Below are positions 10,455 to 58,496 of a DNA stretch of 64,000 nucleotides, in pieces. Below the pieces are notes generated by a model, which saw only the letters and a program-made list of their open reading frames with translations, was not told the origin of the DNA and made no database searches. Each line of letters begins with the position of its first letter. The stretch's first letter is position 1. The DNA comes from Marinobacterium sp. (GTDB taxonomy: Bacteria; Pseudomonadota; Gammaproteobacteria; Pseudomonadales; Balneatricaceae): contig JBLXDP010000014.1 of assembly GCA_048264005.1 (NCBI GenBank), forward strand, positions 3,565 to 67,564, written 5' to 3'. A program made the translations under genes and the position numbers.

Positions 10455-10744
10455 GCATAAAGTAACCGCTCATAAAGTAAGGTTAAATACTGCTGGATCT
10501 TGATAATCATTACTATTTAGTAGTGCATTTATTGTTCAGTCTGTGTTAATCTTGGGCTGCTTTTAAGTCAAGCTAAGATTTAGAAAGGACTCAAAAGGTA
10601 GCTGGACGTTTACCGCTTGATTAATGTCATTACATCAATGTTACAAGCGGAGTTAGACTTTTGGCTTAGGCGGAAGGGTGTGGAAACCTGGATTCCAAGT
10701 GCTAGCAGTCAGCTTGAAGCTCATCTCCAGTCAGATGAAGGATC

Positions 10745-52095: not shown

Positions 52096-52419
52096 TTACT
52101 CGACGATATCCGCGCTGCTGATTTCAATCTCGTGACCGGGGCCAGCGTCAAACATCACGGTGTACGGAGTGCCCGGTTTATCGAATTCGAACTCACTGTC
52201 CTCGTTCATGCTGCCTTCGAGCAGTACATTGCCGCTTTCGTCACGCACTTCAACACTGATCCCCGCGGCAGATGAGCCGTCCGAGAATCCACCTTCGCAC
52301 AATACTGAGCCATCACCGTTGTCATAGCATGCACAGATTGGGGTATGAGCCATTGCCAGGTTACTGGTGAGCAGGGCGGTCAGGGCAGTGGTGGCAATGC
52401 TGAATTTGATGCGCGGCAT
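52096..52419 (-). CDS. Periplasmic NikL/CbiL-like putative metal-binding protein
   Basis: Signal peptide AMA|H leaves an N-terminal His; CAC..C; GFSDGS; C-terminal DAGPGH. Confidence 0.6.
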   Translation of the reverse strand: MPRIKFSIATTALTALLTSNLAMAHTPICACYDNGDGSVLCEGGFSDGSSAAGISVEVRDESGNVLLEGSMNEDSEFEFDKPGTPYTVMFDAGPGHEIEISSADIVE

Positions 52420-52473
52420 GGTGCGAGTCCTTTTTTAAATTTGCTGCAGAGTGAGGGCTGGGAAAAAATCGTT

Positions 52474-52492
52474 GAGAATGAATATCGTTATT
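52474..52492. promoter_or_regulatory. Fur box
   Basis: GAGAATGAATATCGTTATT, 14/19 match to GATAATGATAATCATTATC, upstream of feoA. Confidence 0.75.
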
Positions 52493-52509
52493 TCCTTGAT
52501 TAAGAAATA

Positions 52510-52528
52510 TAGCATCACTATCATTTGC
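52510..52528. promoter_or_regulatory. Second, weaker Fur-like box
   Basis: Reverse complement GCAAATGATAGTGATGCTA, 12/19 match. Confidence 0.4.
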
Positions 52529-52589
52529 TGATCAATCAGGCCCTTAGCCATCCCAGCGCCAGGACCGCCCCCAGCAGGAATGCACGTAC

Positions 52590-52832
52590 ATGGAACACCT
52601 CTTTAAAACCCTTAATGATCTAATGCCGGGCAAGCGTGCCCGTATTCGTCGTCATCGCTCTGAGGGAGGGGTGCGTCAGCGTTTGCTGGACCTGGGTTTG
52701 ATGCCAGGCGTGGAGGTGACGCTGGTGCGCAGTGCTCCGCTGAATGACCCCATCGAACTTAAAGTGGATGCCAGCAGCATCTCATTGCGCCGTAAGGAAG
52801 CCGGGACGATCGAGATACATGATGAGCACTAA
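52590..52832 (+). CDS. feoA: Ferrous iron transport protein A
   Basis: RQRLLDLGLMPG..V...RSAPLNDPIEL....ISLRRKEA. Confidence 0.93.
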   Translation: MEHLFKTLNDLMPGKRARIRRHRSEGGVRQRLLDLGLMPGVEVTLVRSAPLNDPIELKVDASSISLRRKEAGTIEIHDEH

Positions 52833-55341
52833 GCTAAAGGATATTGCCGTTGCCCTGGCAGGGCAGCAGAACGCGGGTAAATCCACCACGTTCAATATGC
52901 TCACTGGCGCACGTCAGCATGTGGCGAATTACCCCGGTGTAACAGTCGACAAGAAGTACGGCTATTACCGTGATAATCAGGGCAGTGTTCAAACCATCGA
53001 CCTGCCTGGAACTTACAGCCTGACCGCGTTTTCCCTCGAGGAGCGTGTCGCGCGCGATTACCTCCTGAATGAAAAACCGGATGTGGTAGTGAATGTGGTG
53101 GACGCGTCCAATCTGCGTCGCTCACTCCACCTCACACTGCAAATCATGGAGATGCAGCTGCCCACGATTCTTGCGGTCAACATGATGGATATCGCCCGTG
53201 GCCGTGGTTTACAGATCGACTGCGAAACGCTGGGCCAGCGTCTTGGGTTTCCCGCTATCGCCACGGTGGGCCGCAAGGGCGAGGGGAAAAAAGAGCTGCA
53301 AAAGGCGATTCGAGGTGCCGTTGGCCAGCCTGTGGCGAAGACCATTCTCGACTATGGCGCGCTTGAGTCAGATCTGATCGCATTGGTATCGGTAATAACG
53401 TCCTGCGAGTCGCTGCAATCCTTCCCTCCGCGCTGGCTGGCACTGAAACTGTTGGAAGGAGACAGTGTTGCCATCGAGCTTGTTCAGACGGCACTGCAAC
53501 CGGAGCAGGCTGATGCACTGGTTTCTCAGGTACAGCAACGGGCTCAAGCCTTTCTGGATAAGTACCAGCTGGATGTAACCGATCATGTGGTTGCTTGCCG
53601 TGAACAGAAGGTGAGAACCCTGCTGGACGGTGTGCTGACTGGTGGTGATCACTCGCGCCCCACATTGACGGATCGCATCGACCGGGTGTTGCTGCATCGT
53701 TGGGGAGCGCCGCTGTTTCTGGTCGCCACCGTGTTCCTTATTTACCAGATTGCCATCGTCTGGGGGTACGAGCTGACCAAATACACTTGGCCATTCCTGG
53801 CCGGTTTCAGGGAGTTGGTAGCCGGTGTCCTGCCTGATGCAGGCTTCCTTGTTGATCCTTACACCCGCGCGTTGGGCTTGTGGCTGGTGGACTCGGCCAA
53901 CACGCTACTTAACTACGTGCCGATCTTCCTGATTCTGTTTGCATTGATCGCCATACTGGAAGACTCCGGTTACATGGCGCGTATCGCATTTATTCTCGAC
54001 AAAATTTTGCACCGCTTCGGCATGCATGGGCAGAGCACTCTGCCGCTGATATTGGGTGGCGTTTTCGCCGGTGGCTGTGCTGTACCCGGTGTAATGGCAA
54101 CCAAGGGTATTCCGGATAACCGGGCGCGCATGGCGACCATCTTGACCGTGCCCTTTATGAACTGCCTTGCGAAAGTGCCTTTGTACACTCTATTGCTGGG
54201 TATTTTCTTTGTAGAACACCGATCTTTGATGATGTTCTACATCGCGACCATGACCATTATCTTTGCCTTGCTGGTGTCCAAACTACTGACCAAAACCGTG
54301 CTGCGGGCGCAGGAGACTGCACCCTTCGTGATGGAGTTGCCGGCTTACCATGTGCCGACAGTCAGGGGCGTGCTGCAGCGATCGTTTGAGCGGACCTGGA
54401 TGTATATCAAAAAGGTGGGCTCTATCGTGGTGGCCGTAGCGGTGGTGGTGTTTACCCTGTTGCAGTTCCCGGGTTTGCCGGATGAACGCAAGGCTCACTT
54501 TGAGGCCAGTGGCCAGCAGGCGGTGCTGAGCTTCCAGCAAGCCATGGATGCTAATCCCTATGCTCAAGTGGCTCAGGGCCAGAATCTTGTGCCTCTGCTG
54601 AACTATTACAACGACTTTAAACGCGCCAAGCTCAATGCCTCGGGGGCTGACGCCTCGCTGGCAGTGAATGACGCATTCGAAGCTCGCAATCCGGAATTCT
54701 TCATTTTTGTGAAGGCACCCAAAGGCGACAAGGCGGCCCGTGAAGCGGGACGCGCGTTGAAGAAGCTGGCGTCCTCCAGCAAGTCGTTGCGCAGGGAAAT
54801 GAAAGAGGAGCGGATCACGTACTCCATTCTGGGCAACATTGGCCGCAGCCTGGAACCGGTAACCCAATATGCCGGTTTCGACTGGAAGATCAATGTGGCG
54901 CTGCTGTCCTCCTTTGCGGCGCGCGAAAGCAGCGTGGCGACGCTTGGCGTGCTGTTCCAGCAGGATGATGATCAGAACGCCACACTGGAAGAGCGCATGG
55001 GTGCTGAAACCATGGCCGGAGGTGCGACCTCCTTGCTGGCCGTTTCCATGATTCTGTTTTTTGCCCTCTATCCGCCTTGTCTGGCGACCACCGTGATGGT
55101 CAAAGTCCAGACCGGTTCATATAAGTGGATGCTGTTTTCCATCGTGTTTCCTACCGTTTTGGGGCTTGGCGTATCCAGTTTGGTCTTCACGCTGGGCACG
55201 CTAACCGGTGCCAGCGGTATTCAGGCGATAAGTCTGGTGTATTTCGGTGCTCTGGCCCTGCTGTTGTTGGTTGGGCTTGGGGGAAGGGAGAAGCGGCCGT
55301 CTTTTGATCCGGCCGATGCAGCCTTGGAGGTGAAGGGATGA
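52819..55341 (+). CDS. feoB: Ferrous iron transport protein B with extended extramembrane loop
   Basis: G1 GQQNAGKST, G2 NYPGVTVD, G3 DLPG, G4 NMMD; gate motifs LEDSGYMAR and LYPPC; 840 aa. Confidence 0.95.
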   Translation: MMSTKLKDIAVALAGQQNAGKSTTFNMLTGARQHVANYPGVTVDKKYGYYRDNQGSVQTIDLPGTYSLTAFSLEERVARDYLLNEKPDVVVNVVDASNLRRSLHLTLQIMEMQLPTILAVNMMDIARGRGLQIDCETLGQRLGFPAIATVGRKGEGKKELQKAIRGAVGQPVAKTILDYGALESDLIALVSVITSCESLQSFPPRWLALKLLEGDSVAIELVQTALQPEQADALVSQVQQRAQAFLDKYQLDVTDHVVACREQKVRTLLDGVLTGGDHSRPTLTDRIDRVLLHRWGAPLFLVATVFLIYQIAIVWGYELTKYTWPFLAGFRELVAGVLPDAGFLVDPYTRALGLWLVDSANTLLNYVPIFLILFALIAILEDSGYMARIAFILDKILHRFGMHGQSTLPLILGGVFAGGCAVPGVMATKGIPDNRARMATILTVPFMNCLAKVPLYTLLLGIFFVEHRSLMMFYIATMTIIFALLVSKLLTKTVLRAQETAPFVMELPAYHVPTVRGVLQRSFERTWMYIKKVGSIVVAVAVVVFTLLQFPGLPDERKAHFEASGQQAVLSFQQAMDANPYAQVAQGQNLVPLLNYYNDFKRAKLNASGADASLAVNDAFEARNPEFFIFVKAPKGDKAAREAGRALKKLASSSKSLRREMKEERITYSILGNIGRSLEPVTQYAGFDWKINVALLSSFAARESSVATLGVLFQQDDDQNATLEERMGAETMAGGATSLLAVSMILFFALYPPCLATTVMVKVQTGSYKWMLFSIVFPTVLGLGVSSLVFTLGTLTGASGIQAISLVYFGALALLLLVGLGGREKRPSFDPADAALEVKG

Positions 55342-55634
55342 ATGAATCAACTCACGCGCAAACGTTGGTGCAATCCGGGATTCAGGTCAGTGCCGAGCAG
55401 CCATTTTCACTGACGGATGTCGGCTTGGTCGCGGCGGTTGTGGTGGCTGCGTTCATCTATTTGTACTTCAAGCTTTGGCGCAATCGTGGTGCCTGCTCAT
55501 CCTGCAGCAGCAAGAAGGGCAGCTGTCAGAGCCAGCAGGCCTCTGCAAGCACGGGTTGTACGCAGCAGATCGAAATTGTCGAACTCAAATCAGAATCTAA
55601 CCCAGAGCCAAGCCGTCAGAATATTGCCCAATGA
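55338..55634 (+). CDS. FeoB-associated Cys-rich membrane protein
   Basis: Single TM then CSSCSSKKGSC...C; ATGA overlap with feoB. Confidence 0.8.
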   Translation: MNESTHAQTLVQSGIQVSAEQPFSLTDVGLVAAVVVAAFIYLYFKLWRNRGACSSCSSKKGSCQSQQASASTGCTQQIEIVELKSESNPEPSRQNIAQ

Positions 55635-56518
55635 GCTTAGCGATCGAAGTCAGTAATCTCACCCACCGCTACGGTGAGCGGTCGATATACGAGGGCTTGA
55701 GCTTCTCGGTACCGCAAAACCGAGTGGTGGCCTTATTGGGCAAGAATGGCGTTGGTAAAACGACGCTGATTAAAATCCTGATGGGCTTTTTGCGCCCAAG
55801 GGGCGGTAGCTGCAAGGTGCTGGGCGAAGACTCGCATCGTCTCTCACCTGGCACCCGCTCCCGTATCGGACTGCTGTTCGAAGGTCATTTGGCCTATGAG
55901 CTGATGAGCATTGCGGAAATAGAAGCCTTCTATTCTTCGTTCTATCCCGGCTGGCGCAGAGAGCTTTATTTCGACCTGGTTGATCGGTTGGGACTCCCTT
56001 ACAGCCACAAGATCGGCAATATGTCTTGCGGTCAGCGTTCACAGGTTGTGTTGGGGCTGATTTTTGCGCAAAGCCCGGAATTGATGATTCTCGATGATTA
56101 CTCTATGGGGCTTGATGCCGGGTATCGGCGTCTGTTTCTGGACTATCTACAGAACTTCATTGATGAGGGCGATAAAACCGTCTTTGTGACCTCGCATGTG
56201 GTGCAGGACATGGAGCAGCTGGTGGACGATGTGATTTTTCTGCAGCGCGGCGGCAAGGTCACGCAGATGCCTCTGGAGCGCTTTCGTTCCGATTTTCGCT
56301 GCTATCGCTTCGAGCTGGGCAGAAGTTCCCAAGCGCCGCGCCAGGACGAGGTGATCGCCAATGTCGATCTGGTTGGACGTCATCCGACTCTGTTTTCCTT
56401 TGCCCCTGTAGAACAGCTGGAGCAACACCTGAGGCTTAACTATCCCGGCGTTCGGTTGGTGTCTGAGGTCAGCCAGTCCCTGGAAGACGCCTTTATCGGA
56501 CTGACAGGGAAATATTGA
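55631..56518 (+). CDS. ABC transporter ATP-binding protein (exporter-like, non-canonical Walker B)
   Basis: GKNGVGKT, MSCGQ signature, ILDDYSMGLD, TSH switch. Confidence 0.9.
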   Translation: MSLAIEVSNLTHRYGERSIYEGLSFSVPQNRVVALLGKNGVGKTTLIKILMGFLRPRGGSCKVLGEDSHRLSPGTRSRIGLLFEGHLAYELMSIAEIEAFYSSFYPGWRRELYFDLVDRLGLPYSHKIGNMSCGQRSQVVLGLIFAQSPELMILDDYSMGLDAGYRRLFLDYLQNFIDEGDKTVFVTSHVVQDMEQLVDDVIFLQRGGKVTQMPLERFRSDFRCYRFELGRSSQAPRQDEVIANVDLVGRHPTLFSFAPVEQLEQHLRLNYPGVRLVSEVSQSLEDAFIGLTGKY

Positions 56519-57189
56519 CGATGATGTTAAGGTCCATCTTTCTCAAGGAGTGGCTCAAAGTCCGCTGGTTCTGGGTGTTGGCACTGGTGGTGAATCTTGG
56601 CACCCTGGTGTACCTCTATCTGGATTTGCGCCATCAGTTTCAGGTCGAGCACTCGGAAATGATCTGGTACTGGGCGTTCGAATTACGCCGTCTACTCTAT
56701 ACCCCGATTCAGTATATTCCAGTGTTGACCGGTGCTCTATTGGCGCTGGCCCAGTTTGCGCCCGAGATGATCAATGGCCGTTTCAGGCTCTCTTTGCATC
56801 TGCCTGTGCGTGAGGATCTGCTGGTGTGGAGCTGGGTGCTGTTTGGCGCTTTGATGGGGGGCGCCTTGATCCTGCTGGATCTGTTCGGGCTCTATCTGGT
56901 GGTTGCCGCCTGGTTCCCACATGAAGCGGCCCTGAGTGCGGTCTTGACTGTATTACCCTGGTGTTTGGGCGGCTGGGTGGCCTACTTTGGGATCACGCTG
57001 GCATTGCTTGAGCCTCAACCCATCCGGCGCCTGAGCTACCTGCTGATCGGCTTGGCCTTTATGGCGCTGCTGTATCAGGAAAAGGGCTATCAGGAATATG
57101 ACCAGATCCTGATCTGGCTCGGACTGATGGGGCTTCTCTTTGTTCCGGCAGTGATTCTGCCGGCCCACCGTTACCGTCACAGGAATTGA
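56515..57189 (+). CDS. ABC-2-type membrane protein
   Basis: IFLKEWLK start, about 6 TM, RFRLSLHLP loop; coupled to the ATPase stop. Confidence 0.75.
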   Translation: MTMMLRSIFLKEWLKVRWFWVLALVVNLGTLVYLYLDLRHQFQVEHSEMIWYWAFELRRLLYTPIQYIPVLTGALLALAQFAPEMINGRFRLSLHLPVREDLLVWSWVLFGALMGGALILLDLFGLYLVVAAWFPHEAALSAVLTVLPWCLGGWVAYFGITLALLEPQPIRRLSYLLIGLAFMALLYQEKGYQEYDQILIWLGLMGLLFVPAVILPAHRYRHRN

Positions 57190-58491
57190 GTGATGATTCC
57201 GGCTCGTATTGCACGTGGCAGTTTGTTGTTGCTCACCGTCCTGTTGTTGGCGATCTGGCTGCCTAAGGCCAAGGATGTGCTGTTTGAGTATCGTTTTGGC
57301 AAAACACATCTGTTCTACAGCCCGGTCGCGGAAACTTTTATCTATAAGGAACTGCTGGGTGAAGGGCATGACTTTATCTATCGTGACAGGGAAGGGCAGG
57401 ACTACACCCGCGAAGAGTTTGAAAGCCTGATCCCCTTTATTTATTACAAGAATATGGAAATCTGGGGCAAGTTACCGCTGACCATTGGTGATCGTACCTT
57501 TGACAAGGCGGCGATACGTGAAGCGCGTCAGGTGATGGAGCTAAAGCCTGACGAGTTGCCGGAGCATAACCCTCGCATTCAGCTATTCCCGTTGCTTGAA
57601 TCCAACCCTGGTCAGGCGCGGTTGAGCTTTCCGGAAAATGTGTTTCGTCCAGCCGAGCGACTGGAATTCATCGATTCGGATCACAACCACGCCACACCCA
57701 GGCATGGTAAGCCTGCTGATCACGATCACCCTGCGGAGCGCTTCAGTCAAACCTACACCGCTGCACTAACGGCGGCCGGTTTCAACTTTCCGGTGCAGGC
57801 AACCTTTGGCCGTGTATCCATTCTCAAGACCTTTGATGCCGGTTATTTCCTGCTGGATAACGCGGGCGAGCTGTTTCATCTCATGCGAGTGGATGGGGAG
57901 CCTGTGGTGAACGCGGTTGCGCTGCCTGAAGGTGTGGATGTGCGTTTTGTTAAAGTCACTGAAAACAAACGCAAGGAGCTGCTGGGCTTTCTGCTGGATC
58001 AGAACGGCAGGCTCTATCTGATGGAGTATGGCAGCTACCGTTTGATTCCATTGGCGCTGCCGGGTTACCGACCGGATCTGATGGAACTCAAGGTGATCTT
58101 CAATCCGCTTTACCGCACGGCGATCTATTCGGACAGTGAAACCATTACAGCCGTTGCGATGGACACTGAATACGAGGTCGTGGACCAGTACAGCCGAACC
58201 ATGGCAATGGCTGCGGAACGGACGTCTGACAGTGTCTGGGGCCTGCTGTCACCGTTCAGCCTGCGGTTACATGATCCGAATAGCCGTTATCTGTCGCTGC
58301 ACCCGGTTTGGCATGGCTGGGCCGCTATCGCAGGCAGCATCGGGGCGTTTGTGTTGGCTGTAGTCTGGATGCGATTGAAGGGATTTAAGCCCAGTGCTCA
58401 TCCGGCAGACTTGCTGCTGGTGTTGTGTACCGGGCTGTATGGCTTGCTGGCACTTCTATTGTTGCCGCCGGACAGGCCAAGGTATCGCTGA
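57190..58491 (+). CDS. DUF4857-like membrane-anchored periplasmic protein
   Basis: N-terminal TM, YSPV...G..YTREEFESLIPF.YY, FPLLES, two C-terminal TM; family recognised from memory. Confidence 0.65.
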   Translation: MMIPARIARGSLLLLTVLLLAIWLPKAKDVLFEYRFGKTHLFYSPVAETFIYKELLGEGHDFIYRDREGQDYTREEFESLIPFIYYKNMEIWGKLPLTIGDRTFDKAAIREARQVMELKPDELPEHNPRIQLFPLLESNPGQARLSFPENVFRPAERLEFIDSDHNHATPRHGKPADHDHPAERFSQTYTAALTAAGFNFPVQATFGRVSILKTFDAGYFLLDNAGELFHLMRVDGEPVVNAVALPEGVDVRFVKVTENKRKELLGFLLDQNGRLYLMEYGSYRLIPLALPGYRPDLMELKVIFNPLYRTAIYSDSETITAVAMDTEYEVVDQYSRTMAMAAERTSDSVWGLLSPFSLRLHDPNSRYLSLHPVWHGWAAIAGSIGAFVLAVVWMRLKGFKPSAHPADLLLVLCTGLYGLLALLLLPPDRPRYR

Positions 58492-58496
58492 AGCTG

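Follow-up and report, generated by a model that had tools for sequence, protein, structure and literature searches.

A FeoAB cluster of Marinobacterium with a conserved secreted partner and an optional ABC ATPase–DUF4857 cassette: a candidate composite metal uptake system

The locus described here lies in a 64,000-nt stretch of DNA from a Marinobacterium sp. (hereafter the window), in which genes were located from a list of open reading frames (ORFs) combined with Pfam and NCBIfam scans. It comprises seven genes: a divergent gene for a small protein designated peri107, followed on the opposite strand by feoA, feoB, p98 and a trio encoding an ATP-binding cassette (ABC) ATPase, a membrane protein designated mem224 and a DUF4857 protein. 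Comparison with other genomes shows that the FeoAB proteins of this locus belong to a dedicated clade that is genetically coupled to peri107, and that the trio has been added as one cassette in some lineages. The features of the locus are the following.

52096..52419, minus strand: peri107, a 107-aa predicted secreted β-sandwich protein (ORF and partial NikL match)
52474..52492, strandless: Fur-like palindrome GAGAATGAATATCGTTATT in the divergent promoter region, 14/19 on the plus strand and 15/19 on the minus strand
52496..52535, strandless: two face-to-face σ70-like promoter matches (consensus scan alone)
52590..52832, plus strand: feoA, 80 aa (PF04023, 75 bits, 4.9e-21)
52819..55341, plus strand: feoB, ~840 aa (FeoB_N, Gate, FeoB_C and FeoB_Cyto; TIGR00437, 469 bits)
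55338..55634, plus strand: p98, 98 aa with one transmembrane (TM) segment and a Cys-rich tail (PF12669 FeoB_associated, 23.2 bits, sub-threshold)
55631..56518, plus strand: ABC ATPase, 295 aa (PF00005, 71 bits; PmtA, DrrA, GldA and NodI matches)
56515..57189, plus strand: mem224, a 224-aa polytopic protein of an orphan family (hydropathy; no Pfam or NCBIfam match)
57190..58491, plus strand: DUF4857 protein, 433 aa (PF16149, 267.9 bits, 1e-79)
55607..58494, strandless: 2.9-kb cassette with the ATPase, mem224 and DUF4857 genes (blastn presence/absence between close congeners)

The six co-oriented genes are tightly packed, and all positions and junctions given for them in an initial annotation of this DNA agree with the ORF list. 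The feoA and feoB genes overlap by 11–14 nt, the next junctions are ATGA overlaps at 55338 and 55631 and a TTGA overlap at 56515, and the GTG start codon at 57190 abuts the preceding stop codon. No convincing terminator was seen at the junctions of the locus. The earlier family assignments (feoA, feoB, a PF12669-type protein and DUF4857) were reproduced in the Pfam and NCBIfam scans, the PF12669 match being sub-threshold. The flanks encode HopJ, DinB, an acyltransferase, ApbA, DUF6482 and AzlCD; they contain no gene for a substrate-binding protein or a TonB receptor, which bears out the absence of both from the locus as initially described.

The window FeoB contains the complete domain set of its family, i.e. 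PF02421 (2.7e-61), PF17910, PF07670 in two stretches and PF07664, and its TIGR00437 score of 469 bits lies well above the cut-off of 316 bits. With feoA adjoining feoB, the gene pair is assigned to the Feo family. It holds the sole true feoB of the 4.13-Mb genome; this and the Fur-like operator lend indirect support to Fe(II), which would be the most likely substrate. A hydrophilic loop of FeoB (residues 552–700) was considered as a periplasmic docking insert and rejected, as generic FeoBs keep most of it; the loop is rich in Lys and Arg and therefore probably cytoplasmic. The p98 protein matches PF12669 at 8e-5, with a score of 23.2 bits against a gathering score of 27, and consists of a TM segment at residues 28–46 and a Cys-rich tail containing CSSCSSKKGSC. 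Its gene adjoins feoB both here and in congeners, including congeners that do not have the ABC trio.

The peri107 protein has a predicted signal peptide that is cleaved between AMA and H, so that the mature protein starts with a His (HTPICACYDNGDG...). In an alignment of 23 sequences His25, Cys31, Cys41, His96 and a GGFSDGSSA motif are invariant; the Ala before the cleavage site, the first mature His, the two Cys residues and a C-terminal Gly-His are all unchanged, the N-terminal His occurring in 23/23 sequences. With 42–62% identity across phyla, peri107 is the best conserved of the accessory parts. An AlphaFold2 (AF2) model, with a predicted local distance difference test (pLDDT) value of 92.5, shows a seven-stranded sandwich, for which a Foldseek search against the PDB returned generic immunoglobulin- or macroglobulin-like folds alone. 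The family comprises 1345 clusters, every one of which is named 'hypothetical' and none of which carries a Pfam domain. Its N-terminal half matches NikL (NF058648, positions 2–90 of 180) at 1.7e-14 and 54 bits, the cut-off being 100 bits. Weak profile matches to CopC (E ~0.07; signal peptide and N-terminal His) and to an SdrD B domain were set aside as analogy, not homology. A predicted mature N-terminal His, here following cleavage between AxA and HFQ, is also present in 38/39 of the DUF4198 proteins that accompany peri107 in genome loci; DUF4198 presumably corresponds to the NikK-type periplasmic protein. From these sequence features we infer that the N-terminal His of peri107 may bind metal. 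NikK and NikL themselves have been proposed as periplasmic metal-binding parts (PMC545781).

A search seeded with peri107 gave 80 metagenome loci. Where at least 3 kb of upstream sequence was available, feoB was present in 42 of 45 loci, and in 30 of those 42 it ends at most 300 bp upstream of peri107 on the same strand. A DUF4198 gene follows immediately downstream in 52/59 loci, and the ABC trio occurs in just 2 of the 11 loci with long flanks. At several loci (L040, L046, L049, L064, L140 and L149) peri107 is located immediately upstream of the ATPase gene and no feoB was found nearby in the available sequence. Since peri107 adjoins both feoB and the ATPase gene of the trio, it links the two modules. 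FeoAB, peri107 and DUF4198 make up the core of the system, to which the trio is added; peri107 is the part common to both. It is the most tightly Feo-linked component and, on the profile evidence, a partial homologue of the N-terminal domain of NikL. The initial annotation had mentioned the divergent gene for a periplasmic His/Cys protein in passing; the gene is indeed present, and its standing as a side remark has to be revised in view of the 42 of 45 peri107 loci with feoB.

No DUF4198 gene was found near the window locus, the DUF4198 partner being lost from this cluster. The only DUF4198 gene of the genome is located on contig C8 (115048–120360), in a divergent cluster of TonB-receptor, PepSY-like, DUF4198 and 203-aa protein genes with a 15/19 Fur-like site between its two arms (C8:117938). 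This cluster resembles the Fur-regulated Caulobacter locus CCNA_03155-59.

In a tree of 83 FeoB sequences all 80 peri107- or trio-linked FeoBs form one clade, which sits on a very long branch apart from the generic FeoBs of related genomes. The presence of the trio requires at least 13 changes on this tree; some of the metagenome contigs labelled 'peri107-only' may be too short to include the trio, and several long ones are secure. Alphaproteobacterial sequences are nested within those of gammaproteobacteria, and SAR324 sequences within those of Desulfobacteraceae, and therefore transfer of the cluster is indicated. The identities of FeoB and DUF4857 homologues to the respective window proteins correlate with each other (r = 0.88, n = 50), which is consistent with co-inheritance.

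The association of the trio with feoAB was analysed in a second set of 80 genome loci, seeded with DUF4857, in which the homologues of all seven window proteins were located. These loci come from Chromatiaceae, Hahella, Cohaesibacter, Pseudovibrio, Rhodospirillales, many Desulfobacterota and SAR324. In 38 loci the flanks extend for at least 8 kb on either side; feoB is present in 27 of these (71%) and peri107 in 32 (84%). Of the 51 loci that contain feoB, 41 have it upstream of the ATPase gene in the same orientation, at a distance of 0.3–3.4 kb. The chance that a random gene lies within 10 kb of a single feoB in a 4-Mb genome is ~0.5%, so the link between trio and Feo cannot be ascribed to chance. 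The initial annotation had held that a lack of synteny elsewhere would speak against its proposal; the trio is in fact strongly syntenic with feoAB. Among the refuting outcomes listed there, none of those that could be tested was observed. The usual gene order in gamma- and alphaproteobacteria is DUF4198 and peri107 on one strand, followed divergently by feoA, feoB, p98, ATPase, mem224 and DUF4857, and in Desulfobacterota a single same-strand series of feoA, feoB, peri107, DUF4198, ATPase, mem224 and DUF4857.

The ATPase, mem224 and DUF4857 genes are co-located in nearly all 80 loci. The one clear exception is Thiobaca trueperi (L008, 7124–11251), in which a DUF4857 gene, with a product 59% identical to that of the window, is preceded by genes for a TonB-dependent receptor and a 201-aa protein; the sequence within 10 kb of it contains none of the ATPase, mem224, peri107 and feoB genes. 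A conserved gene for a ~228-aa protein without a Pfam match ('c11') is found downstream of DUF4857 in Hahella and many Chromatiaceae (L001, L003-L005, L009-L011, L013-L015 and L028) and is not present in the window. In the Desulfobacterota clusters, genes for P-type ATPases with an HMA_2 partner, NicO-family proteins, DUF2325 proteins and porin-like proteins recur nearby (L023, L026, L035, L039, L042, L065-L071 and others), forming larger metal-handling neighbourhoods.

The best NCBIfam matches of the ATPase are PmtA, DrrA, GldA and NodI, and its best PDB matches are ABCA3, ABCA7, ABCA4, ABCA1, Rv1218c and NosF (69 bits for NosF), which places it in the DrrA/NodI/ABCA/NosF group of ABC-2 and type V exporter systems. 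By these comparisons it is most closely related to ATPases that work with ABC-2-type permeases. The protein retains the Walker A motif (GKNGVGKT), an SxGQ signature and the H-loop His. Its catalytic site is non-canonical, with Glu in place of the Q-loop Gln (E84) and Asp in place of the Walker-B Glu (LDDY, D156). Both substitutions, at positions fixed by alignment with ABCA3, are invariant in 61/61 ATPases of the module. The canonical ABC motif set is incomplete in this protein, which is a family member by overall homology (PF00005, 71 bits).

The mem224 protein has ~5–6 TM segments according to its hydropathy profile and a conserved loop, QFxPEMxxxRFRLSLHLP, and its gene lies between the ATPase and DUF4857 genes in nearly all loci. 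It has no match in Pfam or NCBIfam, nor in the PDB by profile search. As an ABC-2 permease mem224 was tried and rejected, an hhalign comparison with PF12679-type permeases giving probabilities of at most 1%, and the label 'ABC-2-like' is unsupported by sequence for this protein. The description of the two proteins as ABC-2 or exporter types in the initial annotation was right for the ATPase, with its matches to PmtA, DrrA, GldA and NodI, and found no detectable similarity to rest on in mem224.

The nearest relatives of the ATPase (PmtA, DrrA, NodI and ABCA) are mostly exporters, and P-type efflux ATPases are common neighbours of the module. The trio might accordingly be imagined as an exporter or envelope-protection system that acts against Feo-mediated Fe(II) influx by handling excess or mis-incorporated metal, a reductant, a thiol compound, a lipid or a peptide. 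This reading is very unlikely: the trio of Bacteroides thetaiotaomicron discussed below is induced by iron depletion and not by iron excess, the genes are tightly linked to secreted proteins of metal-binding type and to uptake systems (FeoB and TonB receptors), and they are positioned behind a Fur-like repressor site.

The DUF4857 protein matches PF16149 over almost the full model (positions 2–270 of 270) at 267.9 bits, the cut-off being 25. Its AF2 model (pLDDT 84.5) consists of an N-terminal TM helix, a β-rich periplasmic domain of ~340 aa and C-terminal TM helices, of which hydropathy indicates two and the model three. A Foldseek search of this model against the PDB found no close structure, giving partial β-propeller-like matches with template-modelling scores of at most 0.24. 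Within the periplasmic domain lies a His-rich loop of 13 residues, HNHATPRHGKPADHDHP (window 57680–57735, residues ~165–181), which is modelled with low confidence. The loop is found just in the window protein and that of M. stanieri and is missing in 17 other relatives; it may be a lineage-specific metal-binding loop.

Among 61 relatives DUF4857 occurs in the genome of the window alone. Two congeners, G007 and G012, carry the same type of FeoB (96% and 83% identical to that of the window), and their loci contain peri107, feoA, feoB and p98 in the same chromosomal context without the three ABC genes. In blastn comparisons window positions 55607–58494 are replaced in these genomes by ~100 bp (L096, 7521–7616, in G007; L097, 7762–7869, in G012), and in G007 a hairpin follows p98 in place of the cassette. 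All seven genes of the cluster are present in M. stanieri S30, likewise in this chromosomal context. The FeoB proteins of the window and G007 are 96% identical, those of M. stanieri and G012 98.7%, and the identity between these pairs is ~83%; cassette polymorphism is thus found within both sister pairs, that of M. stanieri and G012 having also been compared by blastn. The derived His-rich loop that M. stanieri DUF4857 has in common with the window protein argues for an ancestral cassette that was lost twice. Because feoAB, peri107 and p98 are kept without the trio in the congeners, the trio is dispensable for FeoAB. It is an optional cassette that has repeatedly been gained or lost.

Gain and loss of the cassette independently of feoAB would also be expected if the trio were a self-sufficient importer of an iron chelate or another metal species, perhaps with peri107 or DUF4198 as its binding protein, that stands beside feoAB only through a common iron-starvation regulon. 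In 11 of the 38 full-flank loci no feoB is found nearby, and often peri107 is then located directly upstream in the position of a binding-protein gene; peri107 moreover resembles NikL, and DUF4198 presumably corresponds to NikK, both of them accessory proteins of a true importer, and the TonB-receptor locus of B. thetaiotaomicron contains no other obvious inner-membrane importer. Several properties of the parts nevertheless disagree with such a function. The ATPase groups with ABC-2/ABCA/NosF-type enzymes and not with importer or energy-coupling factor (ECF) ATPases, and mem224 has no similarity to any importer permease. Furthermore, peri107 is found far oftener with feoB alone than with the trio, and the same-strand fusion to feoB-p98 by overlapping codons recurs across classes. 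We regard an independent importer as rather unlikely.

Evidence for a relation to iron comes from homologues of the trio in B. thetaiotaomicron, where BT3625-27 (DUF4857, a hypothetical protein and an ABC ATPase) are induced 37- to 65-fold by iron depletion (PMC10434189). The whole BT3625-33 locus, which also encodes two PepSY-TM proteins, DUF4876 proteins and a TonB receptor, is induced up to 128-fold under these conditions (PMC10434189). In Caulobacter a DUF4198/DUF2271/PepSY locus is Fur-regulated and needed in the presence of ethylenediaminetetraacetic acid (EDTA). In Campylobacter jejuni the Fur-boxed Ftr1-P19 operon contains ABC genes of unknown substrate that are needed for iron acquisition (PMC6083913).

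The divergent promoter region of the window locus points in the same direction. The palindrome reported in the initial annotation as a 14/19 Fur box was located at 52474–52492; scored against the 19 positions of the E. coli Fur consensus, it has 14 matches on the plus strand and 15 on the minus strand, and it is conserved in four Marinobacterium genomes. It is one of just two sites with at least 15/19 matches in the window, and 15 such sites are present in the 4.13-Mb genome, several of the others preceding TonB-receptor or PepSY/DUF4198 genes. A simple estimate predicts 5–10 chance sites per genome and ~4e-4 in the 170-bp spacer. In an alignment of the spacers of the four genomes a block of ~70 bp is near-invariant and the remainder has diverged; this block contains the Fur-like box and both promoter-like elements, TTGATT-17-TATCAT towards feoA and TTGATC-18-TATATT, with TG, towards peri107. 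The σ70 consensus scan gave three matches, compared with four expected in shuffled sequences. The near-invariant block with the box and the promoter elements, together with the rarity of the box, makes Fur control of the locus plausible. A search of the 80 loci with the delta-proteobacterial Fur-box consensus (PMC545781) found just 10 sites, none of them consistently upstream of feoA. The second 15/19 site of the window (10496–10514, GATCTTGATAATCATTACT) precedes a type IV pilin-like ORF by ~250 bp.

The metal need not be iron. The cluster could handle Ni, Co, Mn or Zn, with its FeoB clade acting as a 'Meo'-like transporter served by NikL- and NikK-like periplasmic proteins. Such a function would suit the partial NikL match of peri107, the frequent occurrence of NicO, HMA-domain and P-type ATPase genes nearby, and the His-rich loop of DUF4857, which is typical of Ni and Zn binders. 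Some FeoB paralogues are known to transport Mn (PMC8749426), and orphan NikK/NikL pairs without NikMQO were noted earlier without a function being assigned (PMC2667541). The NikL match is partial, however, reaching 54 bits against a cut-off of 100 in the N-terminal half only, and the window feoB is the only one of its genome. In addition, the operator appears Fur-like when set against the general NikR, Zur and MntR consensus sequences, the trio homologues respond to iron depletion, and in Caulobacter Fur regulates DUF4198 loci, which are important when iron is chelated. A metal other than iron is considered unlikely.

Taken together, the locus may be a composite uptake system for a divalent metal, most likely Fe(II), equipped with an accessory ATP-driven periplasmic machine, an interpretation in which we place about even confidence and whose mechanism is inferred. 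Under iron limitation a Fur-type repressor would leave the shared divergent promoter region. The peri107 protein would bind metal in the periplasm and pass it to FeoB, which would import the delivered metal using GTP. The trio would form an inner-membrane ABC complex in which the atypical ATPase moves the large periplasmic domain of DUF4857, by mechanotransmission as in NosDFY and not for bulk transport. These movements could load or unload peri107, or release metal from a poorly available form, and would so increase the supply to FeoB. The trio would be conditionally useful and not essential for Feo.

Several observations weigh against this interpretation. Mechanotransmission is proposed by analogy alone, and the modelled DUF4857 has no structural match to NosD or to the periplasmic domains of MacB/LolC; likewise, sequence comparison placed mem224 in no ABC permease class. 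The trio is not Feo-specific, being found beside TonB receptors and PepSY proteins, and not beside Feo, in Bacteroides. Two congeners do not have the trio, which is dispensable and could be functionally independent. The metal could be Ni, Co, Zn or Mn in view of the likeness of peri107 to NikL, the neighbouring NicO and P-type ATPase genes and the His-rich loop. Finally, the Fur-like site is a 15/19 match of a kind of which about 5–10 are expected by chance genome-wide and 15 are seen. The proposal in the initial annotation of an uncharacterised iron or other metal acquisition machine fits the synteny, the trio induced by iron depletion in B. thetaiotaomicron, the conserved Fur-like box and the absence of such a system from the Feo literature searched; it has to be qualified in that the trio is optional and not specific to Feo.

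No other bacterial Fe(II) importer is as widespread as Feo, the mechanism of which is not yet clear. The accepted Feo model includes no periplasmic or ATP-driven partner. If the proposed function is correct, a FeoB clade with conserved secreted partners would add a periplasmic delivery step to Feo, which suggests that iron delivery to FeoB can be chaperoned, and perhaps energised, from the periplasm. A tentative extension is that FeoB does not in every case work alone as an Fe(II) permease: this whole FeoB clade would be served by secreted chelators with a free N-terminal His (peri107 and DUF4198), and a new type of ABC machine would use cytoplasmic ATP for mechanical work in the periplasm on carriers or bound iron, perhaps extracting Fe(II) from sulfide or chelates, the same engine being used in TonB-dependent uptake in Bacteroidota. 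The DUF4857 trio has a wide distribution (Pseudomonadota, Desulfobacterota, SAR324 and Bacteroidota), yet it is rarely mentioned in the literature searched. Neither ABC nor periplasmic partners are mentioned in the main evolutionary study of Feo, and a Feo system with this trio is undescribed in the Feo literature searched (PMC8749426). The Marinobacterium sister genomes with and without the cassette provide a natural comparison, and the invariant ATPase substitutions (Q-loop Glu and Walker-B Asp) are an enzymological oddity on their own account.

With the canonical Feo systems of E. coli and Vibrio cholerae the locus shares the SH3-like FeoA, the G domain, helical domain, two Gate motifs and FeoB_C of FeoB, and a translationally coupled feoA/feoB pair behind a Fur-type operator, which here is Fur-like and predicted. 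It differs from them in that FeoC is absent from the window cluster and that the window FeoB belongs to a separate clade, being ~36% identical to generic FeoBs of the same genus. Canonical Feo, for its part, does not include the peri107, DUF4198, Cys-rich membrane peptide and optional ABC trio of the window clade (PMC8749426). The BT3625-BT3633 locus, likewise uncharacterised in function, contains the same trio of DUF4857, hypothetical membrane protein and ABC ATPase; there the trio is joined to a TonB-dependent receptor, DUF4876 and PepSY-TM proteins, whereas that of the window is joined to FeoAB. The C. jejuni Ftr1-P19 system (CJJ81176_1649-1656), the nearest precedent in design, also brings together a non-ABC iron permease, a periplasmic metal-binding β-sandwich protein and an ABC module. 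Its proteins belong to unrelated families, with Ftr1 in place of FeoB and P19 in place of peri107; in addition, the C. jejuni system contains thioredoxins, and it has two annotated ABC permease genes where the window has mem224 and DUF4857.

The NosDFY-NosL copper/sulfur delivery machine provides the parallel for the proposed mode of action. In NosDFY, ATP hydrolysis moves the periplasmic part, which passes metal from a small chaperone to its client without pumping a solute. The window trio resembles it in having a NosF-type ATPase (69 bits), a small polytopic subunit and a large periplasmic subunit. The DUF4857 protein, by contrast, has membrane anchors at its two ends, and its model gave no structural match to the NosD β-helix; mem224 is not detectably NosY-like, and the ATPase is without the canonical catalytic Glu and Q-loop Gln. 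As the Foldseek search against the PDB found no NosD-like β-helix subunit, the trio falls outside the NosDFY type and the likeness is architectural only. A different parallel is offered by the nickel/cobalt ECF transporters NikKMLQO, in which a metal importer has NikL and NikK as periplasmic accessory proteins (PMC545781, PMC2667541). No NikM, NikQ or ECF-ATPase family match above threshold was present among the annotated genes of the locus and its flanks. The peri107 protein matches the N-terminal periplasmic half of NikL, far below the cut-off and without the C-terminal half, and the peri107/DUF4198 pair is attached to FeoB.

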